A stretch of 64,000 nucleotides of DNA from NCBI RefSeq assembly GCF_050320075.1, contig NZ_CP190018.1. One strand, 5' to 3'. A model generated the notes under the pieces. It was not told the origin of the DNA, ran no database searches, and worked only from the letters and a program-made list of their open reading frames with translations. The translations under genes and the position numbers were made by a program. Source of the stretch: Escherichia coli. GTDB lineage: Bacteria > Pseudomonadota > Gammaproteobacteria > Enterobacterales > Enterobacteriaceae. The first letter of the stretch is position 1. Each line of letters starts with the position of its first letter. Positions 3,567-59,590 of the stretch are shown here, one piece after another.

Positions 3567-3582
3567 ACCCTGACGTCAGGGT
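3567..3582. promoter_or_regulatory. Perfect 16-bp palindrome ACCCTGACGTCAGGGT followed by TTT, between silA and the DUF411 gene; terminator or operator candidate
   Basis: Read directly from sequence; function not established. Confidence 0.3.
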
Positions 3583-3609
3583 TTAAATCGATAATATACA
3601 GAGGTGAGT

Positions 3610-4050
3610 ATGAAAAAAGTGGTTCTGATGGCGCTGGCTCTCGGCCTTTCACTGCCCGCGATGGCGAGTGAAAAAGTGATTGATATGTACAAATCTGACA
3701 ACTGTGGCTGTTGTTCCCTGTGGGGCAAGGCGATGGAAAAAGACGGGTTTGAAGTACGAACTCACGTCATGAATGATCAGGCGCTGTCAGCCCTGAAAGA
3801 AAAGCATGCTATTCCTGCAGGGCTGCGAAGTTGTCATACCGCGGTTGCCGGTAATTTGATCATTGAAGGCCATGTGCCTGCGACAACGATACATAAGGCA
3901 ATGCAGTCTGGTTCAGGTATATACGGTTTCGCCACCCCCGGTATGCCAGCAGGAAGTCCTGGAATGGAGATGGGAGCCCGAAAAGAGGCTTACGATGTTA
4001 TCGCATTCTCACCGGATGGAAGTAAAAAAGTCTTCCAGCGAATCGAATAG
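3610..4050 (+). CDS. silG: Periplasmic metal-binding protein, DUF411 / ORF96 (SilG-like)
   Basis: Signal peptide, CxxC-like GCCS motif, position between silA and silP. ATG at 3610 preferred over the track's GTG at 3604 because GAGG lies just upstream. Confidence 0.75.
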   Translation: MKKVVLMALALGLSLPAMASEKVIDMYKSDNCGCCSLWGKAMEKDGFEVRTHVMNDQALSALKEKHAIPAGLRSCHTAVAGNLIIEGHVPATTIHKAMQSGSGIYGFATPGMPAGSPGMEMGARKEAYDVIAFSPDGSKKVFQRIE

Positions 4051-4176
4051 TCAGCGGAACGGCTGATAACGGGACGCCGGTAGCAGGCACTCCTGTGCCG
4101 GCGATATTCGTGGTAATCGCATCCATGACATACCCTGAAGACAGAAGATGCTTCGGTATGCATAAGGAGAGTTACT

Positions 4177-6624: not shown

Positions 6625-6664
6625 CACTGAGTGAAGGGTCAGTTACGAACAGAAGGAGTCCAGT

Positions 6665-6862
6665 ATGAAAAGTACCACCTATGCGCTTATTGCTGTCGCC
6701 GCGATCGCGGCATTTGCCCTCCTGCGCGAACACTGGTCACATGTGGCAGGTTACTGGCCATATCTGTTATTGCTGGTCTGCCCGCTAATGCATCTTTTCC
6801 ACGGCCACGGAGGGCATGGAGATCATCAACATCACGGAAGTGAAAACGATAAAAAAAATTAA
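6665..6862 (+). CDS. Small membrane protein with His-rich tail (DUF2933-like) downstream of the P-type ATPase
   Basis: 65-aa ORF with one hydrophobic segment and a C-terminal HGHGGHGDHQHH run; RBS-like GGAG upstream. Confidence 0.5.
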   Translation: MKSTTYALIAVAAIAAFALLREHWSHVAGYWPYLLLLVCPLMHLFHGHGGHGDHQHHGSENDKKN

Positions 6863-6895
6863 TCCGGCAGACGGGGCCGCGTCGCGGTCCCGTTA

Positions 6896-7633
6896 TCAGT
6901 CCAGGTATCGTTCGTAGTCTCTGGCATGCGCAAAGGCATGCTGTTCGAGTTTGTTATCAGCGGGTGCCGCTGCCCGGAACGCCAGAGAGTTAACAGGGTT
7001 GTTATTGATGACCAGCTCGTAATGCAGATGAGGACCGGATGAACGTCCGCTGTTACCGGATAACGCAATAGCACCTCCCCGTGTAACCCTGGCCCCTTTA
7101 GTAACGAGTATTTTATTGAGGTGGAGATAGCGAGTTTTAACACCGGCTTTTCCCGTTACTTCAACAAAATATCCCATGGTACTGTTGTATTCGGCCCGGG
7201 TGATTTTTCCGTCGATGACGCTGACTATTTTCGTGTTCATGGGCATGGAATAATCAATGCCATTATGGGGACTCACTTTTCCCGATACCGGGTTAAGTCT
7301 TGCAGGATTGAAAGGCGAACTGAGTCTTGCTGTGGCCGGTAATGGATAATCGAGACTGCCTTTCCCGGAAGTATCGGAAAGGTTATAGAACTTTTTATCT
7401 GATATACGATACGCCGTGTAATTAAATGAACCGGACGTAAATTTATAGGCCACGACACGTGATTTTCCCGCTTTCTTTTGCAGTACGAGTTTTAATGATT
7501 CATTTTTTTTCAAATGCCGCAGATTAAACCGGGAAGGCAAGGAGCGCTGAAGAGTAGCGATCTCGTTCGATTCCAGCCCCGAGCGGGTGGCTGAAAGGTA
7601 GGCATTTTCTTTTACGACATCGGTAGAATACAT
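6896..7633 (-). CDS. M23 family metallopeptidase (PcoG-like)
   Basis: 245-aa ORF with HxxxD-like (PHNGIDY) and HxH (PHLHYE) motifs typical of LytM/M23 peptidases; located between silP and pco genes. Confidence 0.75.
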   Translation of the reverse strand: MYSTDVVKENAYLSATRSGLESNEIATLQRSLPSRFNLRHLKKNESLKLVLQKKAGKSRVVAYKFTSGSFNYTAYRISDKKFYNLSDTSGKGSLDYPLPATARLSSPFNPARLNPVSGKVSPHNGIDYSMPMNTKIVSVIDGKITRAEYNSTMGYFVEVTGKAGVKTRYLHLNKILVTKGARVTRGGAIALSGNSGRSSGPHLHYELVINNNPVNSLAFRAAAPADNKLEQHAFAHARDYERYLD

Positions 7634-7921
7634 TTACTGGAATTCGCCGTTAGCATGAACACTGCGGCGTATGCTAGGGGTTTTCAGGAGGCGTGTCATC
7701 TGTCAGTTAATCGGGAGCACCGTTGATGGTCGTCATTTTTGTAAAATATCTTGTTTCCCGTTTGCTCCTGAAGCTCTGGGAACTGTATGACCAGCCCGAC
7801 GGTGATGATTAACGGGACTGAAACAGGTTACGGCAGAGCAATATGGGGCTCATGTCCTGCTACGTAACCCGTCAGTAAAGCCCTGCTGCGCACCTGACGC
7901 TAAGCACTAACCCGCCTGCAG

Positions 7922-8371
7922 TTACCTGGTCGAATACAGCCCGCGAAGCTTTCTTGCCTGCGTCTGATGTGCTTCCGCACCGGCATTATTGACCTGCTCA
8001 TGCACGAGAGCGGCTTTTTCTCCGGCATTCAGTTCGTTAAAAGAAGAAGACGAGGTCTTTGAATTTGCATCACTGCCGGACAGCATTTTTTTATGTTCCT
8101 CAATCATTTTCTGATGCGCATAGGACGCGCTGTTGTTCATAAATGAATGAGCAACAATGGCCCTTTCATGTTCATTCATTTCAGAGAATGAGGGCGTGTT
8201 GTTTTTATTAACCCTGTCCGGTAAGTTTTCATGCGTCGAGGAATTCACATGACTGACGGCTGAGGCATTATTAACAAATCGATGTGCTTCATGGGCAATA
8301 TCACTGGACTGAGCAAAAGCTGCCCCACAAAATAAAGCTGTAAACGCAGTGGTCGTGATTAATATATTCAT
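7922..8371 (-). CDS. PcoE/SilE-family periplasmic metal-binding protein (second paralog)
   Basis: Signal peptide; repeated His/Met/Glu-rich motifs similar to the pcoE product at 15023-15457. Confidence 0.7.
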   Translation of the reverse strand: MNILITTTAFTALFCGAAFAQSSDIAHEAHRFVNNASAVSHVNSSTHENLPDRVNKNNTPSFSEMNEHERAIVAHSFMNNSASYAHQKMIEEHKKMLSGSDANSKTSSSSFNELNAGEKAALVHEQVNNAGAEAHQTQARKLRGLYSTR

Positions 8372-8472
8372 GTGTAATTACCTTCTGAGGTACATAAAAG
8401 ATGTCCTTATGATCATATATAAAAATAATCAACCTGTGGGGAAGATGACGTAAATGTAATACAGCTATGTAC

Positions 8473-8488
8473 ATTACACGATTGTAAT
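8473..8488. promoter_or_regulatory. Inverted repeat ATTACA-N4-TGTAAT in the divergent pcoE-like/pcoA promoter region; candidate copper-box for PcoR/CusR-type regulators
   Basis: Perfect palindrome read from sequence in an AT-rich divergent intergenic region; assignment to a regulator is inferred. Confidence 0.4.
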
Positions 8489-8605
8489 GAATTTGTTTCT
8501 TAAGGTGTGCTAGATTCATTTCATTGTAAGTGGATGAACCAGTAATTTAATTTAAATCGGTTCTCGAATTCTGTCAGTAACCATACTTTAAATAAGGGAA
8601 TGCGC

Positions 8606-10423
8606 ATGCTGTTGAAAACGTCTCGACGAACTTTCCTGAAGGGGTTAACCCTCTCTGGCGTAGCCGGAAGTCTTGGCGTATGGAGTTTCAATGCGCGTTC
8701 CAGTCTGAGCCTGCCAGTTGCCGCATCCCTGCAGGGTACTCAGTTTGACCTGACCATTGGTGAAACGGCCGTCAATATCACGGGCAGTGAGCGTCAGGCC
8801 AAAACAATCAATGGAGGCCTGCCGGGGCCCGTTCTTCGCTGGAAAGAAGGTGACACCATTACCCTGAAGGTCAAAAACCGTCTTAATGAACAGACGTCCA
8901 TTCACTGGCACGGCATTATTCTTCCGGCCAATATGGATGGTGTTCCGGGGCTGAGTTTTATGGGCATAGAGCCTGATGATACCTACGTTTACACCTTTAA
9001 GGTTAAGCAGAACGGGACTTACTGGTACCACAGCCATTCCGGTCTGCAGGAACAGGAGGGGGTATACGGTGCCATTATCATCGATGCCGGGGAGCCAGAA
9101 CCGTTTACTTACGATCGTGAGCATGTGGTCATGTTGTCTGACTGGACCGATGAAAATCCTCACAGCCTGCTGAAAAAATTAAAAAAACAGTCGGATTACT
9201 ACAATTTCAATAAACCAACCGTTGGCTCTTTTTTCCGCGACGTGAATACCAGGGGGCTGTCAGCCACCATTGCCGATCGGAAAATGTGGGCTGAAATGAA
9301 AATGAATCCGACTGACCTCGCGGATGTCAGTGGCTACACCTACACCTATCTCATGAACGGGCAGGCCCCGCTGAAAAACTGGACCGGACTGTTCCGTCCC
9401 GGTGAAAAGATACGCTTACGGTTTATCAACGGCTCGGCAATGACCTATTTCGATATCCGTATCCCCGGGCTGAAAATGACGGTCGTGGCTGCAGATGGCC
9501 AGTATGTAAACCCGGTTACCGTTGACGAATTCAGGATTGCCGTTGCCGAAACCTATGATGTCATTGTGGAGCCTCAGGGTGAGGCCTATACCATCTTCGC
9601 ACAATCCATGGACAGGACCGGTTACGCTCGAGGGACACTGGCCACGAGAGAGGGGTTAAGTGCTGCCGTTCCCCCCCTCGATCCCCGTCCTCTGTTGACC
9701 ATGGAAGATATGGGTATGGGGGGAATGGGACATGATATGGCAGGAATGGACCACAGCCAGATGGGAGGCATGGATAACAGCGGAGAGATGATGTCTATGG
9801 ACGGTGCTGGCCTTCCGGATAGCGGGACATCCTCCGCGCCCATGGATCACAGCAGCATGGCCGGTATGGATCATTCCCGGATGGCCGGAATGCCGGGTAT
9901 GCAAAGTCATCCTGCGTCAGAAACGGATAACCCACTGGTTGATATGCAGGCGATGAGCGTCTCTCCGAAATTAAATGATCCGGGTATTGGTCTTCGAAAT
10001 AACGGAAGAAAGGTTCTCACGTACGCGGATTTGAAAAGCCGCTTTGAGGATCCTGACGGACGTGAACCTGGCCGTACCATAGAACTGCATTTAACCGGCC
10101 ACATGGAAAAGTTTGCCTGGTCATTTAACGGAATCAAGTTTTCAGATGCCGCACCGGTGCTGCTGAAATACGGTGAGCGGCTCAGGATCACGCTGATCAA
10201 CGATACCATGATGACTCACCCCATTCACCTGCATGGTATGTGGAGCGATCTGGAAGATGAAAACGGTAATTTCATGGTTCGTAAACACACAATAGATGTT
10301 CCCCCTGGTACAAAACGCAGTTACAGAGTGACAGCAGATGCGCTTGGCCGCTGGGCGTATCACTGCCATTTGCTCTATCACATGGAAATGGGAATGTTTC
10401 GTGAAGTCCGGGTGGAGGAATGA
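8606..10423 (+). CDS. pcoA: Multicopper oxidase PcoA
   Basis: Twin-arginine signal (SRRTFLKG), cupredoxin His motifs (HWHG, HCHLLYH), Met-rich insert ([16 protein letters not shown]). Start may be 8600 or 8606. Confidence 0.92.
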
Positions 10424-10428
10424 TGCGA

Positions 10429-11319
10429 ATGAAGAGAAATTTGAAGGCCATACCTGTTCTGGTCGCCGGTTTGTTTACCTCACAGCTTTCTATTGCGGCG
10501 GGCTCCGTCTCTGCAGATCCCCACGCCGGGCACGACATGTCTGCCATGCAGATGCCAGCAGATGAGAATTTCACTGAGATGACGTCAATGGAGCCCATTG
10601 TAACTGAGAGCAGAACGCCAATTCCGCCTGTTACCGATGCCGACCGGAAGGCTGCATTCGGCAATTTACAGGGGCATGCGATTCACGACAGTGCGATTAA
10701 TTATCTGGTTCTGCTGGATCAACTGGAATGGCAACGGTCGGATAACACCAACAATTTCAGCTGGAGTGTTAACAGCTGGATTGGAGGCGACACAGATCGG
10801 ATTTGGCTAAAGAGTGAAGGTGAACGAAGCAATGGGGAAACGGAGGCGGCTGAAGCGCAGTTACTCTGGGGACATGCGGTTGGCCCATGGTGGGATTTGG
10901 TTGCGGGTGTCAGGCAGGATTTCAGACCTGCTTCTGCCCGGACCTGGGCTGCTGTCGGTTTTCAGGGGCTGGCACTCTATAATTTTGAGTCTGAAATTAC
11001 GGGTTTTGTCAGTAATGGCGGAAAAGCAGCCCTTCGTCTGGGAGGAGAATACGACGTTTTACTGACTAACCGGCTCATACTCCAGCCATCCTATGAGGTG
11101 AATTTCTACAGTCAGGATGATGAATCGCGGGGTCGCGGCAGGGGACTGACTGACACAGAGCTGGGGCTCCGGCTGCGCTATGAAATACGCCGTGAGTTTG
11201 CACCCTATATAGGCGTTTCCTGGAATCAACTTTACGGGAAAACATCCGATATGGCGAAAAGAGAAGGTGAGAAAGACCATCAGGTAGTATTCCTGGCGGG
11301 AGCCAGAATCTGGTTTTAA
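10429..11319 (+). CDS. pcoB: Copper resistance outer membrane protein PcoB
   Basis: Signal peptide, Met-rich N-region, C-terminal beta-barrel-like ending in F. Start could be 10420, 10423 or 10429. Confidence 0.88.
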
Positions 11320-11358
11320 CGCACTGATATAAAACACTCAACTAAACAGGTAAATAAA

Positions 11359-11739
11359 ATGTCGATTTTAAATAAAGCCATTCTTACAGGTGGCCTCGTT
11401 ATGGGCGTTGCTTTCTCTGCTATGGCCCATCCGGAATTAAAAAGCTCTGTGCCACAGGCTGATTCAGCCGTAGCGGCCCCGGAAAAGATTCAGCTTAATT
11501 TCTCGGAAAATCTGACCGTGAAATTCTCAGGTGCAAAATTAACGATGACGGGTATGAAAGGCATGTCATCACATTCTCCGATGCCGGTCGCGGCAAAAGT
11601 GGCGCCAGGCGCTGACCCTAAATCGATGGTCATTATTCCGCGAGAGCCTTTACCCGCTGGCACTTATCGTGTTGACTGGCGCGCGGTTTCTTCAGATACG
11701 CACCCTATTACCGGTAATTACACCTTTACAGTGAAGTAA
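11359..11739 (+). CDS. pcoC: Periplasmic copper-binding protein PcoC (CopC family)
   Basis: 126 aa, signal peptide, mature N-terminal HPELK, Met-rich loop ([13 protein letters not shown]). Confidence 0.9.
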
Positions 11740-11743
11740 TATT

Positions 11744-12673
11744 ATGAACGACCTGATTATGATTGTTATTCGTTTTCTTCTTTATCTGGATTTGATGGTA
11801 ATATTTGGATTGCCATTTTTTCAGATATATGGAATAAGCGGTGTCAGACATGAAACCTATAACCTGACTAATTTCAGGTCGTTTATAACTTTTGCTGTTG
11901 TTACAGGCATCATTCTTACTGGCATTAATATGCTCCTGGTATCTAATGCCATGAGTGGAGTAACTGACCTCAGAGAATTATCCATCCATGTTATCGAGAT
12001 GGTGATAGAAGAAACTGATGTGGGTATTAGCTGGATTGTCAGGCTCTGTGCCCTGTTTACCACACTCGGTGCTTTGTTCCTTTACACTAATAAGAGAGTA
12101 TTGTCCTGCCTGCTGATGACGATGAGTGGGGGCGTGGCGCTGGCTACACTTGCCTGGGGAGGACACGCCGTTATGCATGACGGTCTGCATTACTATCTCC
12201 ATTTACTGAGCGATCTGACCCATCTCGGCGCTGCAGGTGCCTGGACAGGTGCTCTGGTTGCATTTGCTATCCTGCTGATGCGCAGAAACGAGCATAATGC
12301 ACAGAGCGTCATTGTGATATCTGACTCCCTGGCAAAATTTGCCACGGCAGGAACGGTGATTGTTGTAGCCCTGATCCTGAGTGCGCTGGTCAACTATCTG
12401 TATATTGCTGAGGGTAACTTAACTCCCTTATTCAACAGTTCCTGGGGGAGGATATTGCTTGCCAAGACGGCTCTGTTTGTTCTGATGCTTCTTCTGGCTG
12501 CAGCAAACCGGTTTCACCTGGGTCCCCGGCTTGAAGTTATGGTCAGGGAAGGGAATTATGATCGCAGCGTTGCCCTGATGCGAAACAGCATCCTGACAGA
12601 ATTCGTTGTTGCGATTATCATTCTGGGCGCCGTAGCGTGGCTCGGAATGCTTGCTCCGTCTCAGGTCAGCTAG
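11744..12673 (+). CDS. pcoD: Inner membrane copper resistance protein PcoD (CopD family)
   Basis: 309-aa polytopic membrane protein immediately downstream of pcoC. Confidence 0.88.
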
Positions 12674-12727
12674 GGGACAGCCAAAGCTCATGCGTGAGAT
12701 TTTTACTTTCATATCAGCGAGTTGACC

Positions 12728-26424: not shown

Positions 26425-26911
<487 letters not shown>

Positions 26912-27240
26912 TTTGTTCTCCTTAATTATGTAAGGAGTATTTGATCATGTATAAGCAATGGAAAACAGCTTTAGGTAATAAGGAATATCTCAATTATTGA
27001 ATATTTAGTGCGAATTATTTAGTACAAAAAAGCAGCGTTGCGTGATCTTTCCCTGCCCTTTATTCATAAACACATGGATATGGTGATCAACGGTGGTCTG
27101 ATGGAGGCGCAGAGCCTGAGTAATCATGACTGAATTTCAGCCTTCAGAAGCCAGAAAAATGGCTTTAATACAATCGCAGCCCCGCTTTTCACAACATTAT
27201 GCTTATAATATGAAAAATATCTTGCCTTGCATCTTTGTGC

Positions 27241-27720
27241 CTACGGCATTGGATGATCTTTCCCTAACCTTATAGTTTCTTTTAGCCTTTCAAGCCTTAG
27301 CAATTCAACCTCGGCTTTAATATAGCCATGTGAGGCAGCCATTTTCAGCCAATTAATTGCATTATCTAAATTATAATATTTTAAATAGGAATCATCCTCC
27401 TCTGAGGATAGAATCATAGCATAATTATATTGCGCTATGATATTTCCTTGAGATGCAGACCTTGCCAGATATTTAATTTGCTTGGGTATATTAAAGCAAA
27501 CATATGTATAATATTGATGTAATCGATATGACGCATCACCATCCCCGCCCTCAGATTTAATATCAAGTTCATATCTTTGATTTTCACTTAAATTAAACGA
27601 TTCAGATGTTGAGCTTATTTCAATGTTATGGAGCTTAATAGGGGGGGGGATTTCACCTCCATATGAACAACAAGAGAAAAAGAAAACATTTGCAATCAGA
27701 ATAAATAAAAAGCACTTCAT
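27241..27720 (-). CDS. Secreted Sel1/TPR-like repeat protein; candidate immunity protein for the adjacent orphan Rhs tip
   Basis: Signal peptide (MKCFLFILIANVFFFSCC), Sel1-like repeat signatures, immediately downstream of the orphan tip; AT-rich. Confidence 0.55.
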   Translation of the reverse strand: MKCFLFILIANVFFFSCCSYGGEIPPPIKLHNIEISSTSESFNLSENQRYELDIKSEGGDGDASYRLHQYYTYVCFNIPKQIKYLARSASQGNIIAQYNYAMILSSEEDDSYLKYYNLDNAINWLKMAASHGYIKAEVELLRLERLKETIRLGKDHPMP

Positions 27721-27733
27721 GTTGCCACCTTTG

Positions 27734-28725
27734 TTATTTTATATCACTTGGTCTCATAACTTTGCCAGGAGTGGAAGAAATGGGTTGACCTGAAGGTCCA
27801 AACGTTATCCAGCGGCCCATATTATTACCAGTTATGACATTATTACTTGTGTCAATTGCCGAGATATTATCCGTAAGTCCTGTTTGGATCGTATTAAAAA
27901 GAGGAGTATTATTATCCCACGCCATCCATACTTGCCATTGTGTATCAGCTCCAGTGACATTTGCATGAAGTGCTCTGGCTAACTTGCTGGCAAAAGATTT
28001 ATCTCCCTCTCTGGCTGTACCACATGAGAATAATCAAACAGACATTCCCTTTTTATAGCGTGGATTAGCTCTGATTCTCTTGGCTAATCCCTCAGCAGTT
28101 TCATAGTTTCCATTTTCATCTGTAATAAAACCAGGATATCCATGTCCTCCAATAGTAAAAACGCCAGGAATATTTATTTTATCTGTTGCAGCATGCAGTG
28201 ATACATTTCTGCGTATCCCCTCATCATAGAAATTCATATCAGCTAATCCAAAAGGGTCTATATACTGAACCGGATTCAACGGATACTCATAAAAATTCCA
28301 TCCCCCCTTCAGCCCAATCGAATCCTGAGTGATATACCTCCCCTGCAGCGGGTCATAATAGCGGTGGCGGTTGTAATACAGGCCGGACTCCTCATCATAC
28401 TGCTGACCCGGCAGGCGGATGAGTTGCTGCAGCTGTTGCGGGTTCTCTTCATTCAGCAGGTTGCCCCATTCATCGTATTCTGCGCACCATTCTGTTGCCC
28501 CTTCCGTGCTGATAAGCACCAGCGGCAGGCCGCGATGGTCGCAGTGGTACAGGTGGATTTTTCGCGCCGGCGTGTACACCGGGTCCATCTGGTTTTGCAT
28601 CTGCTTCACCGTCAGGCCGCACGATGCCAGCCAGCGGCGGCTTTCCTCACTCACCCGGTCAGCCAGGATTTCACTTTCCAGCCGGTCGAGCATCTGCACC
28701 GTGCCGGCGGGAATCCCCCACTGTG
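27734..28725 (-). pseudogene. Orphan rhs fragment: last part of the Rhs core plus an unrecognised C-terminal toxin domain, interrupted by one in-frame TGA at 28034-28036
   Basis: 28258-28700 is near-identical to 33108-33550 of the full rhs gene; the tip diverges after the DPxGL-type motif (here YIDPFGL); track ORFs 28034-28699 and 27734-27925 are in the same frame, separated only by TGA. Confidence 0.75.
28258..28700. repeat. Copy 1 of a near-identical direct repeat (about 443 bp), the rhs core 3' segment in the orphan fragment
   Basis: Collinear with 33108-33550 at constant offset 4850 with few mismatches. Confidence 0.85.
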
Positions 28726-28740
28726 CATAGGCAACTCACG

Positions 28741-29583
28741 CTATGAACGCTTCAGCTTATCAATAGCGGAAGTTATAATTTCATTGTCATCAAACTTGTA
28801 CAACATAGTATCTAAAACAGGAAGTAGCGTTTTATCACCTAATTCACCCGCAGCTTCAATGATATCATCATAAACAGTATTTTTTTTTAACTCATCGCAT
28901 AAAACAGATAAAACCCTTTTATCTTTTCTGTAGGAAAGTCCGATTATTGCTTCAATACGGACTTCCTCATTTTTATCCTGAAGCATCTCCACAAAACAAT
29001 CCCTAATATCACTATTATCATATTTATTGATATTTATTGCAAATGCGGCCCAGTTTCTGACATCTCCATTTGGATCTTTTAACAGATTAATCAATAGTGG
29101 AATTGTTGCTTTATCATTGATAACAGAAATAGCAAATGCTGTAGCACGTCTGACATTAGTCGATTTATCAAAAGCAGTAATTTGAGATTGTTCTACTATT
29201 TTAGGTGAATAAATTGGGTTTTTCTTGCATCGCTGAGCCGTTGACTCGATTGCCGTAGCTCGAACGCAAGCGCTCTTATCATTCAATGCCATATTGTTCA
29301 AAATATTAAACACATTATCTTTGCATTTTTTGCAAATTTTTATTTGCCCGAGTATAAATGCTCCGATATCTCTACGGATATAATTTTTATCAGAGCAGAA
29401 CTCAATTGCCAATCTAACAGCGTCTTGACCACCTCTTAACTGTAATACTCTGGCAGATGAAATCCTTTTCAAGGAATTGTGATCATCAAGTAAGCGAAAT
29501 AATTCATCATCATTTAGTTTCTTACATTGATTATATAAACCATACTCTTTACTTGCCTTTCTTTTCTGGTATGTATTTGACAT
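28741..29583 (-). CDS. HEAT-repeat protein (YibA-like), immunity-type gene in the Rhs array
   Basis: Repeated D/N-x-x-VR-x-x-A motifs; GGAGG RBS 6 nt before the ATG at 29583; about 280 aa like the rhsA-linked YibA. Confidence 0.7.
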   Translation of the reverse strand: MSNTYQKRKASKEYGLYNQCKKLNDDELFRLLDDHNSLKRISSARVLQLRGGQDAVRLAIEFCSDKNYIRRDIGAFILGQIKICKKCKDNVFNILNNMALNDKSACVRATAIESTAQRCKKNPIYSPKIVEQSQITAFDKSTNVRRATAFAISVINDKATIPLLINLLKDPNGDVRNWAAFAININKYDNSDIRDCFVEMLQDKNEEVRIEAIIGLSYRKDKRVLSVLCDELKKNTVYDDIIEAAGELGDKTLLPVLDTMLYKFDDNEIITSAIDKLKRS

Positions 29584-29687
29584 TGCAGGAACCTCCATAA
29601 AGACTATCTTTTTCTATCGTTTGACTGTCTGGAGTCCTCCACCTACTCTGCCATCAGCACACACGATGTTTGTTTATCCTTACATAC

Positions 29688-29954
29688 TTATTTTCCGTGG
29701 CCAAAATTTAGAATTCTCCCGTCATTTTTGCCTATTTCTATAATAAAAACCCTACCAGCAATTTGGTCTGATTCAATGGTGCCTTCAACAATCCAACTTG
29801 TTGGTAATTCCATGATTTTGTATGGTTTTTCTTCTTCTGCGGCATCATGCCCATAACGATTTTTAACATACATCTCAGCTAATTCCAATGCTATAGCTTT
29901 ATTTTTTACCAAATTTCTAACGGTGTATTTCCCCTCACATTCATACTTGCGCAT
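29688..29954 (-). CDS. Small cytoplasmic protein paralogous to 31553-31900; immunity-like candidate
   Basis: 88 aa; shares ALEL..Y.K..YG...E.KPY.I.....W.(I/V)EG....G..F.I.I.K.DG pattern with the 115-aa protein. Confidence 0.45.
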   Translation of the reverse strand: MRKYECEGKYTVRNLVKNKAIALELAEMYVKNRYGHDAAEEEKPYKIMELPTSWIVEGTIESDQIAGRVFIIEIGKNDGRILNFGHGK

Positions 29955-30035
29955 TATAATAATATTATTACACTGCGCCCATGTGTTGTATGTAAAAACA
30001 AAGATACAATCACATAGGTTCTGAATAATATTTTC

Positions 30036-30401
30036 TTATACGTTGTCATGTATTTTGCAAACATTAGACAATCCTTTTCCATTTATTATATCTTTCCCAT
30101 GATTATCTATTGCTTTAAAATTTTCACCTATTGACCTTGAATTACTACAATCACTTCCAGTGAAATCTGAGTTATTCAGAATAGCATTCATCAGAGCCGC
30201 ATTGTGAAAGACAGCATTTCTAGTTGATGTATGTTGAATCATTACATTTCTTAAATGAGTTTTTTCAAATTTCGCCCCATCAAGACAATAACCATTGAGG
30301 GTGGCACGATGTAGATTCATCCCGCTAAAATCATATCCAGCAAGAGTGGTACTATCTATCTCAAGAAATTTATTGGTTATTAAAAATGCGATTCTTATCA
30401 T
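30036..30401 (-). CDS. Pentapeptide-repeat protein (about 121 aa)
   Basis: Tandem five-residue repeats of the A(D/N)LxX type; GGAGG RBS 5 nt before the ATG at 30401 (track uses TTG at 30413). Confidence 0.6.
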   Translation of the reverse strand: MIRIAFLITNKFLEIDSTTLAGYDFSGMNLHRATLNGYCLDGAKFEKTHLRNVMIQHTSTRNAVFHNAALMNAILNNSDFTGSDCSNSRSIGENFKAIDNHGKDIINGKGLSNVCKIHDNV

Positions 30402-30439
30402 CTGTTCCTCCAATCATCTAACTCCTGAAAAATTTGAAA

Positions 30440-30600
30440 ACCAGAACCTCGCTTAGGCCTGTGTCCATACTACGTGGGTAGGATTATTCTGCGTACTACG
30501 CTGTTGTCCCTTACGTGCTGATAAGGGCTGGCAGGTTTCCGGCTTGCTTCGTTGAGTTCACTACGCTAAAGCTCCGTGTCCACATAACCCAGCTCGGAGG
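30440..30600 (-). pseudogene. Degenerate rhs core fragment
   Basis: Translation GNLPALIST*GTTA*YAE resembles the core segment [22 protein letters not shown] but carries in-frame stops. Confidence 0.45.
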
Positions 30601-30649
30601 CATGACCTTCTCTGGTTCGTTCCATCTAAAATGTCTATAACTGACATGG

Positions 30650-30970
30650 TTATTCAATTATTTTTTCTTTGAGTTTATTCTCAATCCAGCGGTCTTTATA
30701 CCTGATGAGAATTTGACATTCACCAATATTATCAATGTCACCAACATTTGTGTTTCGAATTTGACCAACAGCAACTATAGTTGATTCAAAACATTCAACA
30801 TTGACTTTATCTGTTATTATTGAAACTATATAATCATCTGGAATGGAGCCATTAGGTATTATATTAAAGAAAGTAACATCGGTAAATACTAAATAACCAT
30901 TTTCTAAGTCTTCATTATTATAAAAATTCCATTCTGTTGTACCATAGGCTATCCTTGAGATTAAATTCAC
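30650..30970 (-). CDS. Small cytoplasmic protein, immunity-like candidate; GTG start overlaps the stop of an upstream 27-codon tip remnant (GTGA)
   Basis: 106-aa AT-rich ORF; 4-bp stop/start overlap with the preceding short ORF, as in toxin-immunity pairs. Confidence 0.4.
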   Translation of the reverse strand: MNLISRIAYGTTEWNFYNNEDLENGYLVFTDVTFFNIIPNGSIPDDYIVSIITDKVNVECFESTIVAVGQIRNTNVGDIDNIGECQILIRYKDRWIENKLKEKIIE

Positions 30971-31092
30971 CTGAATTCTAATTTGTTTGCTCCATAAATC
31001 AAATTCAATTTTTTTATTGGTCGATCACCAAGATATATTCTATCAAACATATTACCCTCTATTCTAAAAATACTCAGGCATTCCACACATTA

Positions 31093-31420
31093 TATCAGCC
31101 TCATCTTGACTGCTTCCCGTTTCCCGATACGGCGGTGCGGGGAGTCATAAAGGTAAGAAATTTCCAGCAGTACGGCGTCCTATTGTTCACGGCGGTAATG
31201 CACCAGCCAGTATTGGCTATCGTAGTGATAACCGTGTAATCTGCCGCCGCATCGCGTATCTAATGTTCATTCTTTTCCATAAACCGTCCGTACACATTGT
31301 GATAGTAAAAATACAATACATCTTCGCTGATGCGGTTATTCTGCTGCATGTGGGAAGCGCCGAATACTGCTCCCGGTATGGCCAGTAATTACTATTTAGT
31401 ACGACGTTAGGGGGAGTCAC
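31093..31420 (-). pseudogene. Degenerate rhs core fragment with stops and frameshifts
   Basis: Translation ...GRLHGYHYDSQYWLVHYRREQ*...YLYDSPHRRIGKRE resembles core [17 protein letters not shown]...[13 protein letters not shown]. Confidence 0.45.
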
Positions 31421-31552
31421 TTAATCTCACAGATACTTCAAGTAACAGATGAAAATCGCTCCTGAAATGAAAAAGAAATTTTTTTGAATGTGTTCCTGTC
31501 AAATCAAGTGGTTTTTTCGTCGATATGTAGAGTCATATTGTACACAAAATAG

Positions 31553-31900
31553 TTATGAAACACACCTTGGTAAAATATTTGAATCGTCTGAACAGTGGAT
31601 TATTTTGTGTATTACATCCAACGCTTGCCCATCTTTTTTCGCTATTAGTATTGTAAAATTTCCTCCTAACGTCTTCGGTTGTTTTCCCTCGATTTTCCAA
31701 CAATTATTGTCATCTGTAATACTATATGGTTTCTGAAATTCTGCTTTTTCTTTCCCGTATATATATTTAATATAAACATATGATAATTCCAAAGCCATTT
31801 CACGACTATTTACTAAAATTTCCACTGAATTTTCTTTTCCAAATACTGAGTGTGATATTGTAAACAATATCATAATAAGTAATATTAGTGAGTTTCTCAT
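31553..31900 (-). CDS. Secreted small protein paralogous to 29688-29954; immunity-like candidate
   Basis: Signal peptide (MRNSLILLIMILFTISHSVFG) and shared motif pattern with the 88-aa protein. Confidence 0.5.
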   Translation of the reverse strand: MRNSLILLIMILFTISHSVFGKENSVEILVNSREMALELSYVYIKYIYGKEKAEFQKPYSITDDNNCWKIEGKQPKTLGGNFTILIAKKDGQALDVIHKIIHCSDDSNILPRCVS

Positions 31901-31912
31901 GCTCTACACCTA

Positions 31913-32047
31913 TCGAATCTCAAAAGTTGTGGGTAAAACATTACATTCAGAATATATGATATTCTTACCATCGGAATCCATTTTTCCAAATCGACCTTCT
32001 GGTGTTCCTGGATACCCATTAAGAACATATTTTTTCGAATAGTTAAT
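31913..32047 (-). pseudogene. Start-less remnant of a toxin C-terminus (about 45 codons)
   Basis: Open frame ...YSKKYVLNGYPGTPEGRFGKMDSDGKNIIYSECNVLPTTFEIR ending 10 nt before the next gene; no start codon. Confidence 0.3.
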
Positions 32048-32068
32048 TTATTTTCTCAGGAAGAGATT

Positions 32069-32638
32069 TTATTTTTCTTCACTACGAAGCAGTTCATGCT
32101 GTACTTTTGTTAAACATTCGTAAGACTCATCTTTGTTCGGGAGATGTGCTGTCATTCGAGCATAAGTTGGCTTCTCATCTTTAAAATATTTAACCATGAT
32201 TGAATTATCAAGGACTGCCAACAACTGAGCTGGATCACTGCTCTTTTTTTGATAGATACCCGCTCTTATATAACTTCTAAACCGATCGCCGAGAAACGCC
32301 GTTTTTTCTGCTGTATTTAGCAACTCCTGCAACGTTCCTTTGGTTGCATGATTTTCATTAAGGCGTAGTGATCCGACGCGAATTAAGAGTCTCGCCCCGC
32401 TTGGTGTGAATTTGTTATTTTTACATATACCAAGTTCTGTTTGCCAATAATACTCACCTATGTCCTCATTCTGATACCATCTCCACATGGTTTTATTATT
32501 TAAGACAGGAAACGCGGAAAAAATAGTACCCTTAGTGAAAATGGTAAAGCAATCTTGATCTTTAGCTTGTGTTTCGCAATTAGCTATAACACCAAAACTA
32601 ACGAATATCATCAGCAAAAAGAACAAAGCTCTTTTCAT
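32069..32638 (-). CDS. Candidate cognate immunity protein (RhsI) for the main Rhs toxin; secreted or lipoprotein
   Basis: Start overlaps the rhs stop by 4 bp; N-terminal signal peptide ([21 protein letters not shown]); AT-rich. Confidence 0.6.
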
Positions 32639-35600
32639 TTTCTTATTCCTCTCGATGTTCTCTGTTTCATTTTAGCTAAAATTTCACCCAAATCATCTAT
32701 CCCTGCTGTTGCTGGCCCATCGGGTTTATTAATGTCTGGGAATAAATAGGGTTCTGCACAAGTATATCCTGGTGGTAATTGAGTTGTTGGCCAAGTTGTC
32801 TGTGGCAGGTAATCACTTGCTGTCTTTGTCTCCATCCCTGGATACTGGGGATCATCCTGCGGCGTACAAGTCAGATTGGGTTTTACCCACTTCCTGCAAT
32901 ACAGTGTGTAATCGTAAGGACTTAATGCTCTGAAGAATGTTTTGAAAACATTAGGCGCACTACTGGCCTGGTCAATAGGATATGGCAGTCTTAATTGTTT
33001 CGCTATGTCTGGCAACTTACTTGGATCGGGCGTAGGCGGTTTGTTGGGTCTCGCTCCATATCCGCCATTATTTAAGTGTCCATATTTAGATGCCAGTCCC
33101 ATTGAATCTATATACTGAACCGGATTTAACGGATACTGATAAAAATTCCATCCCCCCTTCAGTCCAATCGGATCCTGAGTGATATACCGCCCCTGCAGCG
33201 GGTCATAATAGCGGTGGCGGTTGTAATACAGGCCGGACTCCTCATCATACTGCTGACCCGGCAGGCGGATGAGCTGCTGCAGCTGGTGCGGGTTCTCTTC
33301 ATTCAGCAGGTTGCCCCATTCATCGTATTCTGCGCACCATTCTGTTGCCCCTTCCGTGCTGACAAGCGCCAGCGGCAGGCCGCGATGGTCGCAGTGGTAC
33401 AGGTGGATTTTTCGCGCCGGCGTGTACACCGGGTCCATCTGGTTTTGTATCTGCTCCACCGTCAGGCCGCACGATGCCAGCCAGCGGCGGCTTTCCTCAC
33501 TCACCCGGTCAGCCAGGATTTCACTTTCCAGCCGGTCGAGCATCTGCACCAGCACCGGCGGGAACACCACACTGCCACCGTCTTCGCCGCCGGACTGCTG
33601 AAGGGCATCCGCCAGGCTGCGGCGCTGCGTTTTCGCCAGCTCACCGGTGGCGGTTTCAACTCTGATGAGTGGCGTGAAGCTCCCCGGCTGATAAACCGTC
33701 TGGATGCGGGTTCTGTCGTTCTGTATCGTGGTCAGCCGGTCGCCGTCCCAGCCGTACCAGGTCACTTCCGGTTTCCGTGACAGCGACATCCAGCCCGTCA
33801 GGTCCCGTTCACGCCGCCATACCCGTTTTGCCACCCTGCGGCCCAGCGGGTCGTAAAGATAGCGACTTTCGACCAGCGGCTCTGCATATTGTGTCCGCGT
33901 GTAGTGCACCAGCCGGTGCCGGCTGTCGTAATGATACCGGTGAGTCCGCTCATCATCCGTGCGGATAACCCCTTCCGGGATGAGGTCGGTTTTCTCTGTC
34001 AGCCTGCCGTGACGGTCATACCGGTAAAGATAGTGCGCGTCACGGGCGATACGGTTATCCGGCCACATGCTGAGGGTGCTGTCCGGGTGCAGCTCCGGGT
34101 CGGGCAGGCGGTTGCCTGCCGGGTCCGTGGCATACGGGATGCGGATATCCAGGTTCGCTGCCGTGGTGTGGACGCCGGTCAGCCTGCCGGTGTCGCTGTA
34201 GCTGTAACTCCGGGTCTGGCGCGGGCTGCTGATGCGGATGAGTTCGCCGTTGTCGTTCCAGGTGTAATCGCGGTCATACTGCAGGCTGTTCAGGTGCTGG
34301 CTCTGTAACTGCCCGGCAGAGGTGTAAGCGGTGGTGAGTTCATAACGGCCGAAGCTGCGCAGCGTTTCCCGGTGCAGGCGGTCGCGGGTGTACTCCACCA
34401 GCGGTGTGTCGCCGAGTTTCATGCCTGACAGCCAGCCGCTGCCGTAGGTCAGCCATTCCACGGCGGGCAGGCTGTCCGGTATACAGCGGTTCGCCAGTCC
34501 CTGCGCGTTGTAAGCGTGTCTGGTTTCATGCTGCCAGAGCAGTGCTTCCGTCTGCGGGTGATGCACCGTCTGGCGCTCACCGGTCAGGCGGCCTTTCTCA
34601 TCATACCCGTAATGCACCGTCACCCGGTGGCCTTCGCTGAGATGGCTGATGCCTGTCAGCCAGCCGCGTTCGTCATACTGCCACTGCTCTGCCGGTTCAC
34701 CATTCACCGTTCGCTGTGTGATGCGGTCTGCTTCGTCATAGTGCCAGTGGGTGACCAGCCCCTCATCCTCGCTGCGGATAAGTTTGCCGGTCAGGTCGTG
34801 GTGATAACGCTGTGTGCGGCCGTCAAAGCCGGTTTCCTGTATCAGCCGGTCAAGTACATCGTAACGGAAGGTGGTGTGGCTGCCGTTTTCACTGGTCAGG
34901 CGGATGACCCGCCCGGCAGCATCGTATTCCATACTGCGCGTCAGACCGCCCTGCGTGGTACGAACGGGCTTTCCCCACGCATCGTACTGTGTCCCGTTTC
35001 TGCTGCCGTCCGGGGCAATGACGGCGGTCAGGTCACCGGCGGCGTTGTATTCATACCGCGTTTCATGGCCCTGCGTGTCTTTCACCGCAATTAACTGTCC
35101 ACGGCTGTCGTATGCGCGGTACTGACTCAGCCCTTCCTCGCGGTGCACCGCCGTCATCTGACCAAAACGGTCATGGTCATAACGGGTTACATAACCGGAA
35201 CAGTCAGTGACGGTCAGCAACTGACCGTAACGGCTCCATGTCATGGTTTTCCGGCTGCCGGTGGCATCCTCCGTTGCGCAGGGTAAGTCACTGTGTGGAT
35301 TATCATAACGGTAGCGGGTGATATCGCCGTTGTGTGCGGTTTCCTGAATCAGACGGCCGGATTCATCATATTCCCGGCGCAATTCCAGCCCGTCAGGCCC
35401 GGTGGCTGACGTTAACTGGCTGTGGTGGTTATAGTAAAATGCCGATGCCCTGCCATCCGGTGTGGTGATGCGCGTGATGAGTCCCGTCACCACATCCGGG
35501 CTGTACTCAGTCGTCCGGCCTGCGGCATCCGTCTGTGCCTTAAGCCTGCCCACCGCGTCAAACTGACTCTGCGTGACGCTGCCGTCCGCGTGTTCCTTTT

Positions 35601-36834
35601 TCACCACCCGCTTCAGCCCGCCTTCGCCCTGCGTGTGCAGCACTTCACGGCGGTCCAGACTGTCGGTGATGGTGATGCGGTCTTTCTCATACTGATACGT
35701 GTAGCTTAAGCCTGCCGGGTTTAGCTGCTCTGTCACCCGCCCGTCGCTGTCGTAACGGTAACGGATTTCTGGCCGGCCCGCGCGGTGGTGCGCCACCATC
35801 CGGCCCCGGTATTTATCATCGTAAGTAAAGCTGCGCACCTGTTTGCCACTGCGGTCATACACCGCCGCCAGTTCGCCGCGTGGCGTCCAGCCATAGCGCA
35901 CCAGCGGCGCGGCAGGTAAATTCTCCGGGTATTCCGGGTCGTGTGTCAGCCACACGGCAGACAGACGGATACCGTTGTCCCGGCCATATTCCGTGTAGTC
36001 CGGCAGGGTATCAGGAAAAGCGGACGGTTCCGTCCCGCCGGAAGAGGCCTGCTGCCGGGCCTCTTCTGCCCGCTGCGCCTGCGTGGTCAGTACCAGCCGG
36101 AAGTGACGCCCGGCACCATCCGTCACGCCGGTGATTTCGCCGCTGAATTCACCGCCAGCCTCACGGTGAAACGTCTGTGTGCGCCCGAAGCGGTCCACCA
36201 GCCCGGTCAGTACCCGGTACGGCGGCAGCGGCGCGGGCAGCACCTCATCCGCTTCCGGCACCCGCTCACACCAGCCGAGCAGCCACCACGGCCCCTGCGG
36301 ACTGTTTGTCGCCAGATAACGATGCGGACTTAAGCGGAGTTCTTCCGGCAGCGCCTGCCAGAGTGCGGTCAGCCGGTGACCTTCATCCAGTTTCAGGACA
36401 CCGCCACGCACCAGCCAGAGTGACTCGCTGCGGCTGTAACCGTCCTCACCGGGAAACAGGTGCTCAAAATACAGGCTCCTGCCGCCGTTATCACTGAGTA
36501 TCAGTGTGTTATCGCGCAGCTGTAGGCGGATATCCGCAGGCATTTTCCAGCCGGGGCCGAGGCTCCCCACCGGCGCGGGCGTTTTTGTCCGGTAACTGCT
36601 GTAGGTGCGGGAGAGGATGAACGGCAGCGGGCCGGGCAGGGCAAGGTCGGTTTCGCCGGGAAGGACCTTCGCGCCGAGCAGCGGATTGACCGGATGGCCG
36701 GACGTCACCCCGCCGGGGCACACCGAACAGGCCACGCCGGTGGGGGCACCAATACGTACCCCGGCAGAACCCTGAACAATGCTACCGCCATACTGCGTCA
36801 TGTCGCCCTGACGCGCCGCCGGTTTTCCGCTCAT
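32635..36834 (-). CDS. rhsB: Rhs family protein (RhsB-like) with PAAR-motif N-terminus, YD-repeat core and an unrecognised polymorphic C-terminal toxin domain (about 32638-33107)
   Basis: 1399 aa; N-terminus [11 protein letters not shown]; numerous YD repeats; core ends at a DPxGL-type motif (YIDSMGL) after which sequence diverges from the orphan copy. Confidence 0.93.
33108..33550. repeat. Copy 2 of the direct repeat (within the full-length rhs gene)
   Basis: See 28258-28700. Confidence 0.85.
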
Positions 36835-37036
36835 CGTAAAATCCTTTTCTATTATTTTAATGACAGTATCTTCATACGAAAAAGCGAAGAAAAACTTGTG
36901 GTCACAATGAATTGAAGGTTTTTAGGAATATATTTAGAACGTTACAAAAGAGAAGGTTCGGATAGGGTATTTAGAGAGGAATCAGGTGTGCTAGTGGCCC
37001 TTTGTTGATCGTTCACCAAAGGACCCAATAATAGGC

Positions 37037-56370: not shown

Positions 56371-57474
56371 ATGAACATGAAGGGTAAAGCGTTACTGGCA
56401 GGATGTATCGCGCTGGCATTCAGCAATATGGCTCTGGCAGAAGATATTAAAGTCGCGGTCGTGGGCGCAATGTCCGGTCCGGTGGCCCAGTACGGTGACC
56501 AGGAGTTTACTGGTGCTGAGCAGGCGGTTGCGGATATCAATGCTAAAGGTGGTATCAAAGGCAACAAACTGCAAATCGTGAAATATGACGATGCCTGTGA
56601 CCCGAAACAGGCGGTTGCGGTGGCGAACAAAGTCGTTAACGACGGCATTAAATATGTGATTGGTCACCTCTGTTCTTCATCAACGCAGCCAGCGTCAGAC
56701 ATCTATGAAGATGAAGGCATTTTAATGATCACCCCAGCGGCAACCGCGCCAGAGCTGACCGCTCGTGGCTATCAGCTGATCCTGCGCACTACCGGCCTGG
56801 ACTCCGACCAGGGGCCGACGGCGGCGAAATATATTCTTGAGAAAGTGAAACCGCAGCGTATTGCTATCGTCCACGACAAACAGCAGTACGGTGAAGGTCT
56901 GGCGCGTGCGGTGCAGGACGGCCTGAAGAAAGGCAATGCTAACGTGGTGTTCTTTGATGGTATCACCGCCGGGGAAAAAGATTTCTCTACGCTGGTGGCG
57001 CGTCTGAAAAAAGAGAATATCGACTTCGTTTACTACGGCGGTTATCACCCGGAAATGGGGCAAATCCTGCGTCAGGCACGCGCGGCGGGGCTGAAAACTC
57101 AGTTTATGGGGCCGGAAGGCGTGGCTAACGTCTCGCTGTCTAACATTGCGGGCGAATCAGCGGAAGGGCTGCTGGTGACCAAGCCGAAGAACTACGATCA
57201 GGTTCCGGCGAACAAACCCATTGTTGACGCGATCAAAGCGAAGAAACAGGACCCAAGCGGCGCGTTCGTCTGGACCACCTACGCCGCGCTGCAATCTTTG
57301 CAGGCGGGTCTGAATCAGTCTGACGATCCGGCTGAAATCGCCAAATACCTGAAAGCGAACTCCGTGGATACGGTGATGGGGCCGCTGACCTGGGATGAGA
57401 AAGGCGATCTGAAAGGCTTTGAGTTCGGCGTATTTGACTGGCACGCCAACGGCACGGCGACCGATGCGAAGTAA
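56371..57474 (+). CDS. livJ: Leu/Ile/Val periplasmic binding protein LivJ
   Basis: 367 aa from [23 protein letters not shown]; paralog of livK in this window. Confidence 0.92.
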
Positions 57475-58480: not shown

Positions 58481-59590
58481 ATGAAACGGAATGCGAAAAC
58501 TATCATCGCAGGGATGATTGCACTGGCAATTTCACACACCGCTATGGCTGACGATATTAAAGTCGCCGTTGTCGGCGCGATGTCTGGCCCGATTGCCCAG
58601 TGGGGCGATATGGAATTTAACGGCGCGCGTCAGGCGATTAAAGACATTAATGCCAAAGGGGGAATTAAAGGCGATAAGCTGGTTGGCGTGGAATATGACG
58701 ACGCCTGCGACCCGAAACAAGCCGTTGCGGTCGCCAACAAAATCGTTAACGACGGCATTAAATACGTTATTGGTCATCTGTGTTCTTCCTCTACCCAGCC
58801 AGCGTCGGATATCTACGAAGACGAAGGTATTCTGATGATCTCACCGGGAGCGACCAACCCGGAACTGACCCAACGCGGTTATCAACACATCATGCGTACT
58901 GCCGGGCTGGACTCTTCCCAGGGGCCAACGGCGGCAAAATACATTCTTGAGACGGTGAAGCCCCAGCGCATCGCCATCATTCACGACAAACAACAGTATG
59001 GCGAAGGGCTGGCACGTTCGGTGCAGGACGGGCTGAAAGCGGCTAACGCCAACGTTGTCTTCTTCGACGGTATTACCGCGGGTGAGAAAGATTTCTCCGC
59101 GCTGATCGCCCGCCTGAAAAAAGAAAATATCGACTTCGTTTACTACGGCGGTTACTACCCGGAAATGGGGCAGATGCTGCGCCAGGCCCGTTCCGTTGGC
59201 CTGAAAACTCAGTTTATGGGGCCGGAAGGTGTGGGTAATGCGTCGTTGTCGAATATTGCTGGCGATGCTGCCGAAGGCATGTTGGTCACCATGCCAAAAC
59301 GCTATGACCAGGACCCGGCAAACAAAGGCATCGTTGATGCGCTGAAAGCAGACAAGAAAGATCCATCCGGGCCATATGTCTGGATCACCTACGCGGCGGT
59401 GCAATCTCTGGCAACTGCCCTTGAGCGTACCGGCAGCGATGAGCCGCTGGCGCTGGTGAAAGATTTAAAAGCTAACGGTGCAAATACCGTGATTGGGCCG
59501 CTGAACTGGGATGAAAAAGGCGATCTTAAGGGATTTGATTTTGGTGTCTTCCAGTGGCACGCCGACGGTTCATCCACGGCAGCCAAGTGA
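58481..59590 (+). CDS. livK: Leucine-specific periplasmic binding protein LivK
   Basis: 369 aa from [23 protein letters not shown]. Confidence 0.92.

Follow-up and report, generated by a model that had tools for sequence, protein, structure and literature searches.

The N-terminus of Escherichia coli RhsB resembles a single PAAR blade and probably serves as a Tse5-like handle for type VI secretion

The chromosomal Rhs toxin gene rhsB of Escherichia coli encodes an N-terminus that, judged from its alignments, is one blade of the three-blade PAAR cone followed by a linker, and not an autonomous PAAR domain. This piece probably acts as a single-blade handle like that of Pseudomonas aeruginosa Tse5, by which RhsB would be loaded onto VgrG for delivery by a type VI secretion system (T6SS), a machine that the lineage possesses. 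This is how E. coli Rhs core proteins normally begin, and it does not define a new kind of system; the refinement made here is that a single blade free of a zinc ligand fails canonical PAAR tests and probably works like the Tse5 handle.

RESULTS

The open reading frame is rhsB, at its usual chromosomal position

The open reading frame at 32635-36834 of the 64-kb window (the whole stretch of DNA that was analysed) encodes a protein of 1399 amino acids, according to the translation of the window. It lies on the minus strand, a detail absent from an earlier, sequence-only reading of this DNA. The NCBIfam equivalog model RHS_core (NF041261) matched residues 1-1247 with 2633.6 bits (cutoff 2000; profile positions 1-1261), and Pfam searches detected RHS_repeat (237.9 bits), DUF6531 (residues 46-123) and RHS; TIGR03696 was found at residues 1170-1247. 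The protein shows the traits of an RHS element core protein, namely YD/RHS repeats, an Rhs-associated core that reaches a DPxGL motif, a variable tip and a downstream partner ORF. The reading frame is intact over its 1399 codons, with both the DPxGL motif and the partner ORF in place. The gene is flanked by nikR and nikEDCBA upstream, and by yhhJ and rbbA downstream, which is the chromosomal site of E. coli rhsB (order nikR-rhsB-...-yhhJ). The gene is thus E. coli rhsB, and positions 36700-36834 are its 5′ end, corresponding exactly to codons 1-45. The features of the locus are collected in Table 1.

The GC content is 62% in the RhsB core, 43.5% in the C-terminal tip and 38% further downstream, and the stretch that is conserved with an orphan copy stops near residue 1247. 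The toxin tip (codons 1226-1399) gave no family match in Pfam or NCBIfam. The same searches gave none for the 189-aa partner ORF, annotated as hypothetical protein WP_000816740.1 in the NZ_CP123240.1 record; its position makes it a candidate cognate immunity protein. According to the annotation of that record, the orphan array contains a Sel1 protein, an Rhs C-terminal pseudogene, a YibA HEAT protein, NTF2-fold immunity proteins and DUF6258, and the orphan ORF at 28034-28699 matches Pfam RHS.

The whole window, which contains sil/pco, IS elements, yhiI-rbbA-yhhJ, the rhsB locus and the genes from nik through liv, is collinear with positions 313871-377870 of NZ_CP123240.1 (strain YZLc1-3), with 99.98-100% identity. 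Four SNPs separate the two sequences in the rhsB region; two lie inside rhsB, one being synonymous and the other producing an A156T change. The strain-specific region formed by the toxin tip and the orphans was present at at least 99% identity in 234 complete genomes.

Table 1. Features of the rhsB locus (window coordinates)
Feature	Coordinates	Strand	Basis
AAGGA ribosome-binding site, 7 nt 5′ of the rhsB ATG	36842..36846	-	Read from the sequence
Single PAAR-like repeat ('blade'), codons 1-29; Tyr15 at the DxxxH/C zinc-ligand position	36748..36834	-	Alignments to third PAAR repeats
Cys-containing linker, codons 30-47; predicted shell anchor, ending at the predicted autocleavage site H47/P48	36694..36747	-	Tse5 homology
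DUF6531, N-terminal plug of the Rhs shell, codons 46-123	36466..36699	-	Pfam PF20148, 66.5 bits; Tse5 8cp6_B residues 1-79, E=8e-10
Rhs core/shell (YD repeats, RHS, Rhs_assc_core), codons 48-1247	33094..36693	-	RHS_core, TIGR01643, TIGR03696, RHS_repeat
DPIGL motif, residues 1221-1225	33160-33174	-	Inside the Rhs core
C-terminal region after DPIGL, codons 1226-1399, with the variable toxin domain	32638..33159	-	GC drop to 43.5%
189-aa ORF overlapping the rhsB stop codon; candidate immunity gene, signal-peptide-like N-terminus	32069..32638	-	ORF list
Orphan toxin-tip/immunity gene array 3′ of rhsB, ending in an ISAs1 (H-repeat) fragment	26477..32068	-	Annotation of the collinear record

The N-terminus aligns to the third repeat of PAAR proteins

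The sequence-only reading had placed a PAAR-type motif at the start of the Rhs protein. The motif is real: it is conserved and aligns to PAAR third repeats. The domain search of the first 120 residues that had been proposed along with it, however, yielded no PAAR match above cutoff in either of two libraries (Pfam and NCBIfam), the very outcome that the reading had formally named as speaking against its claim. The Pfam model PAAR_motif (PF05488; cutoff 27) gave 16.4 bits with the first 120 amino acids and 18.3 bits with the first 47, and the NCBIfam model T6SS_PAAR_dom (NF033420; cutoff 124) gave 15.8 bits. Both matches were partial, covering only profile positions 51-69 of 70 in the first case and positions 68-94 of 94 in the second, which correspond to repeat 3. 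Residues 2-29 of RhsB aligned to the last (third) repeat in four solved PAAR proteins (9rce_c, 4jiv_D, 4jiw_D and 8gra_J), with E values of 0.0009 for 9rce_c and 0.011 for 4jiv_D. An artificial three-fold copy of residues 1-29 reached 61 bits against PAAR_motif.

RhsB contains a single PAAR repeat, and the PVNP/DUF6531 plug starts after 47 residues, while a three-repeat cone takes about 90. The DxxxH motifs provide zinc ligands needed for PAAR folding (PMC7773334). In RhsB the corresponding segment reads D11-M-T-Q-Y15, with Tyr15 at the position where 4jiv has Cys and the three-repeat relatives described below have H, H and C. An AF2 model of residues 1-145, based on a 33-sequence alignment, had a pLDDT of 33-44 over residues 1-90, a low confidence that is not in itself proof of disorder.

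An exhaustive HMMER search with RhsB residues 1-130 retrieved 480 clusters at E values up to 0.001. Among the 113 matches listed (Met start and PVNP), about 93 had 46-51 residues ahead of the PVNP, as in RhsB, while in six the PVNP was preceded by 101-108 residues containing three PAAR repeats. These three-repeat relatives carry the same GxACSxCPGG...PVNP linker, and RhsB aligns in register with the third of their repeats. Three of them, P0062, P0100 and P0107, passed the Pfam PAAR_motif threshold with 65.7, 142.4 and 125.9 bits, respectively. The AF2 model of the P0062 N-terminus (pLDDT 80) matched 4jiw_D (c1882; TM 0.65-0.70) and 4jiv_D (VCA0105) with a probability of 1.00.

The alignments to third repeats, the PAAR scores and fold of the three-repeat relatives and the score of the three-fold copy together indicate that the RhsB N-terminus corresponds to one blade plus a linker. 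The idea that a P-A-A-R tetrapeptide occurs by chance at the start of an unrelated protein agrees with the sub-cutoff scores of the curated PAAR models. It was nevertheless rejected, its probability being practically nil: the similarity to the four solved PAAR proteins spans 28 residues and always involves the same repeat, family members conserve the motif, and it lines up with repeat 3 of the three-repeat relatives.

Seven positions (M1, R8, D11, I19, V26, G29 and G33) were invariant in 33 homologues with identities down to 49%, and a further 12 (G3, P5, A6, A7, G22, S23, I28, A35, C36, S37, C39 and P40) were conserved in at least 90% of them. The residue that precedes the Pro of PVNP varies in the family, and can be H, N, S, K or D. 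Since blade residues show little or no variation even at identities as low as about 50%, the N-terminus, and the putative handle in particular, appears to be under continuing selection.

The layout of RhsB parallels that of Tse5

By sequence comparison, the closest characterised relative of RhsB is P. aeruginosa Tse5 (PA2684, RhsP1; PDB 8cp6). Chain 8cp6_B was the best PDB sequence match (E=8e-10), and its first residue, the start of PVNP, aligns with P48 of RhsB. Cryo-EM of Tse5 revealed an autocleavage at K47/P48 that generates an N-terminal piece of residues 1-47, in which residues 1-29 are disordered and residues 30-47 have their anchorage within the shell, by way of the DUF6531 plug (PMC10684867). 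This 47-residue piece is reported to be necessary for secretion (PMC10684867, PMC12133291), and Tse5 is exported and has been assigned to the VgrG1c spike of the H1-T6SS (PMC12133291). Its N-terminus has been termed 'cryptic PAAR-like' and has no transmembrane segments (PMC10684867, PMC7376260); it is reported to lack a literal P-A-A-R tetrapeptide (PMC9637101). RhsB has the same layout, in which about 47 N-terminal residues lead directly into PVNP and the DUF6531 plug. The Tse5 fragment VISTGSPTVHVG...K/PVNP (which covers about residues 17-47) runs parallel to the RhsB ...H/PVNP.

The parallel with Tse5 also bears on another explanation, considered quite improbable, according to which the N-terminal 47 residues would mainly serve the cocoon, as plug anchor and in autocleavage, and spike loading would rely on another surface of the shell or on an adaptor, as for PAAR-less Rhs proteins carried on a C-terminal extension of VgrG. 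Acinetobacter Tse15 is one case for which PAAR-independent Rhs delivery has been proposed. Such delivery had also been proposed for RhsP, in a paper that is listed as retracted (PMC6156420). Consistent with a cocoon role, residues 30-47 of Tse5 are buried in the shell and killing is unaffected when N-terminal cleavage is blocked (PMC10684867). Moreover, the linker Cys residues of the family are conserved as strongly as the blade, and the VgrG encoded in the aspV island (see below) has a Pro-rich tail of roughly 25 residues after its beta-helix. However, residues 1-29, which in Tse5 lie outside the shell, are nonetheless specifically PAAR-repeat-like and the best-conserved part of the N-terminus, and this is the exact position that a true PAAR cone occupies in the three-repeat relatives.

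A complete T6SS is present in the lineage

No T6SS gene was found within the 64 kb of the window, and a T6SS inside it was therefore rejected. The search for core genes that the sequence-only reading had suggested did succeed in the collinear genome: NZ_CP123240.1 contains, at aspV (4.04-4.07 Mb of the record), a T6SS cluster with hcp, vgrG and tssA, B, C, E, F, G, H, J, K, L and M, plus tagH, vasI, a VasL-domain gene and a second hcp (tssL is annotated as icmH/DotU). The same cluster, with 100% coverage and at least 99.9% identity, was present in at least 19 genomes sharing the exact rhsB locus. The lineage of this rhsB locus thus carries a complete T6SS. Across E. coli, at least 80% of the cluster was detected in 2020 of 5426 complete genomes. 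The collinear genome has, in addition, three other Rhs 5′ ends and a second vgrG/hcp place.

In the aspV island the vgrG gene is directly followed by an 'RHS element core protein' gene, annotated as frameshifted in NZ_CP123240.1, whose product has the same short N-terminus and PVNP. Its blade is not identical to that of RhsB, the differences lying at residues 2, 14-18 and 27. The annotation of this island includes no separate PAAR gene. Linkage to vgrG was also found for the short-form homologue P0040, on another contig, which lies 76 bp after a vgrG, and for the three-repeat P0107, which follows a vgrG within a T6SS cluster. The rhsB copy analysed has nikR upstream, with no linked vgrG, and other short-form homologues are likewise orphans.

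The N-terminal motif is a family trait

The RhsB of E. coli K-12 (b3482), encoded at the same nikR-yhhJ site, is identical over its first 63 residues. In K-12 the stretch from ykfM to yafV lacks the roughly 30-kb aspV T6SS block and retains just the pseudogenes yafU and yafF; the strain is not known to have a functional T6SS. Of 5426 genomes, 3883 contained the Rhs 5′ end, the median copy number being three. Given that K-12 has the same 63 residues and lacks the aspV block, the motif alone does not show an active weapon; it is a family trait. The sequence-only reading had made the question of an active weapon depend on a T6SS elsewhere in the genome, and that check came out positive for the collinear genome. 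Its view of the motif as a PAAR that loads onto the T6SS spike held in part: the homology to a PAAR repeat and the export of Tse5 on VgrG1c speak for it, while the presence of one repeat of three, the Tyr at the ligand position and the lack of a linked vgrG do not.

These observations could also mean that the handle is vestigial, a conserved relic of a full PAAR, and that the orphan rhsB is not exported by a T6SS, being instead silent, a recombination reservoir of toxin tips, or active in the producer in the manner of a toxin-antitoxin (TA) pair. Such a scenario would account for the missing vgrG at the rhsB locus, for the K-12 identity in spite of the absent aspV block and for the below-threshold scores of the PAAR models. 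None of the rhsA/B/C clade members of EHEC is linked to vgrG, and the authors of that work were unable to name the VgrG, if any, that acts as carrier (PMC7216683). For Salmonella, the Rhs activity described is intracellular and TA-like (PMC7043789). A scan of the 200-bp nikR-rhsB gap for promoters and terminators found no site, and thus no sigma-70-like promoter, on the coding strand, which is weak evidence. A vestigial handle is nevertheless fairly unlikely. The blade residues are still nearly invariant among homologues of about 50% identity, the 1399-codon ORF is intact and retains DPxGL and the partner ORF, the lineage keeps a complete T6SS in whose island an Rhs protein has the same N-terminal type, and Tse5 shows that an N-terminal piece of 47 residues is enough for export by a T6SS (PMC10684867).

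A possible mode of loading onto the spike

The reading that we prefer, a single-blade handle of the Tse5 type, builds on the anatomy of the protein, its homologies, the T6SS of the collinear genome and the finding of the same N-terminal type directly after the island vgrG. By homology with Tse5, the linker (residues 30-47) would enter the Rhs shell through its DUF6531-plugged opening and act as an anchor. The chain would probably be cut at H47/P48, as suggested by the K47/P48 site of Tse5, and the small fragment would remain bound. As a flexible, exposed handle, the blade (residues 1-29) would dock the 150-kDa cocoon onto the tip of the VgrG trimer, and the docked RhsB could be fired by the aspV-encoded T6SS of the lineage. 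We infer the cleavage of RhsB, its binding to VgrG, which VgrG is involved and its export from the analogy with Tse5.

Several observations weigh against this proposal: the absence of an adjoining vgrG, the identity with K-12, the sub-threshold PAAR scores, the Tyr at the ligand position, the low AF2 pLDDT, the orphan state of other short-form homologues, the differences between the blade and that of the island paralogue, and the fact that one blade cannot form a cone. Because a 29-residue single blade cannot cap the three-fold VgrG tip as a PAAR cone does, other forms of spike loading were considered. Three Rhs N-termini, belonging to one or to several paralogues, might complete the tip by each pairing with one VgrG subunit, or a single blade might bind at the edge and leave the tip uncapped and zinc-free; such arrangements are improbable. 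If the variant with three N-termini were true, a single spike could be loaded with as many as three cocoons, or with a mixture of toxins, and either variant would amount to an undescribed mode of spike loading for most E. coli Rhs proteins and Tse5.

DISCUSSION

That these proteins have a PAAR-type N-terminus was already known, since surveys of E. coli list them as PAAR-Rhs T6SS effectors. A survey of ETEC based on CDD/rpsblast counted 237 intact proteins of this kind, at nine loci, as PAAR-domain T6SS effectors (PMC10761095), and one of EDL933, with the same tools, counted seven long rhs genes as coding for 'PAAR domain' proteins (PMC7216683). No experiment on the rhsB clade was found in the literature searched. 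The label 'PAAR domain' overstates what is present, that is, one blade of three without a zinc ligand, similar to the 'cryptic PAAR-like' piece of Tse5. As K-12 shares the sequence and lacks the aspV block, annotation pipelines and effector counts should not equate the motif with an active weapon. Two points lend themselves to easy testing: the way in which one blade engages the trimeric spike, and the identity of the VgrG used by the rhsA/B/C clade, which is not linked to a vgrG.

When compared with canonical PAAR proteins (V. cholerae VCA0105, 4jiv; E. coli c1882, 4jiw; family PF05488), RhsB shares with their third repeat the KPAARxGD and GSxxVxIG segments. However, those proteins have three repeats instead of one and a Cys/His zinc ligand instead of Tyr, and RhsB falls below the family cutoffs. 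The three-repeat PAAR-Rhs relatives (P0062, P0100 and P0107) resemble RhsB in having the linker, the PVNP, the DUF6531 plug and the Rhs core, but differ from it in their complete PAAR cone, and are a minority among the 113 members sampled.

Class I prePAAR Rhs effectors, such as EHEC RhsF and Serratia Rhs1, have an AARxxDxxxH motif, a transmembrane domain, a PAAR domain and an Eag/DUF1795 chaperone. The start of RhsB resembles their motif, but with His replaced by Tyr. A prePAAR/Eag reading of RhsB was rejected on account of this Tyr and of the absence of a transmembrane domain, a downstream PAAR or a DUF1795 gene: Pfam prePAAR_I did not match RhsB, residues 12-47 are Gly-rich with no hydrophobic stretch, and no DUF1795 gene lies within the locus. 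The 'split PAAR' of prePAAR effectors does provide a precedent for PAAR function arising from less than one contiguous domain (PMC7773334).

The K-12 RhsB, a member of the RhsA-D 'RHS element core protein' family, is encoded in a locus that likewise has a GC-rich core, an AT-rich toxin tip and a downstream orphan array. The two loci differ in the C-terminal toxin, the partner gene and the content of the array, K-12 having yhhH, which codes for a PF15631 family protein.

Finally, as regards Tse5, that protein is assigned to VgrG1c and its export has been shown, whereas RhsB has no linked vgrG and its export is inferred. The toxin domains of the two proteins are unrelated. The literal P-A-A-R tetrapeptide is present in RhsB and reported absent in Tse5, the linker reads ACSVCPGG in RhsB and SACVPLVGK in Tse5, and the residue before the cut is His at the predicted site of RhsB and Lys in Tse5. 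Common to both is the blade strand xIxxGSxxVxxG.

A three-repeat PAAR-Rhs protein without His/Cys zinc ligands

P0062, a relative of RhsB, is a natural three-repeat PAAR-Rhs protein. All three repeats in its residues 1–101 carry the DxxxY motif (DGTEY, DPVIY and DETLY), and the His/Cys zinc ligands are absent from them. The protein nevertheless passed the Pfam PAAR_motif model (65.7 bits), and its predicted structure (pLDDT 80) is a PAAR cone matching 4jiw, the structure of the E. coli c1882 PAAR protein. P0062 may be a zinc-free PAAR protein assembled from blades of the RhsB type.

The T6SS island of NZ_CP123240.1, a genome collinear with the window, has an Rhs gene directly 3′ of vgrG (NZ_CP123240.1 4039152–4043652; 9152–13652 in L003, the stretch holding the island), and the record's annotation marks this gene as frameshifted. 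If this frameshift is true, the tip/effector of the island itself is broken, and the RhsB-type N-terminus would be left only on unlinked Rhs proteins such as RhsB. The VgrG of the same island (L003 13728–15869) bears a Pro-rich tail of ∼25 residues (…CGATQPVPDAPVPKDLPPGMPDMRQF) C-terminal to its beta-helix.

Surroundings of rhsB

The orphan array behind rhsB has a GC content of 38%; its components, and those of the silver/copper resistance island and flanking fragments, are listed in the table. To our knowledge, the silver/copper resistance block is absent from the corresponding site in K-12. Elsewhere in the window, positions 56398–57297 and 58508–59407 share 77.7% identity, as these stretches hold the paralogues livJ and livK, products of a gene duplication of the usual kind.

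Features of the metal-resistance island and of the orphan array
Feature	Window position	Location
Silver/copper resistance island: silB fragment, silA, silP, pcoABCDRSE, then IS66-family element (ISCro1)	1–18229	
Truncated yhiM (DUF2776) fragment	18823–19185	Beside silver/copper island
IS1	19235–19932	Beside silver/copper island
Truncated DUF4049 gene	19949–21034	Beside silver/copper island
ISAs1/H-repeat fragment	within 26477–32068	Orphan array
Sel1 protein gene	within 26477–32068	Orphan array
Rhs C-terminal pseudogene	27734–28711	Orphan array
YibA HEAT-repeat protein gene	within 26477–32068	Orphan array
Two NTF2-fold immunity genes, one frameshifted	within 26477–32068	Orphan array
Pentapeptide-repeat fragments	within 26477–32068	Orphan array
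DUF6258 protein gene	within 26477–32068	Orphan array

The RhsB toxin tip and its partner

No Pfam or NCBIfam family was found for the RhsB toxin tip (residues 1226–1399) or the 189-aa partner ORF, which together span window 32069–33159. The partner ORF overlaps the rhsB stop codon, and its N-terminus resembles a signal peptide, a feature of the sequence that would fit an RhsB toxin whose site of action is periplasmic or at the membrane. Tse5, the P. aeruginosa Rhs effector that is the closest characterised relative of RhsB, is a toxin with this site of action.
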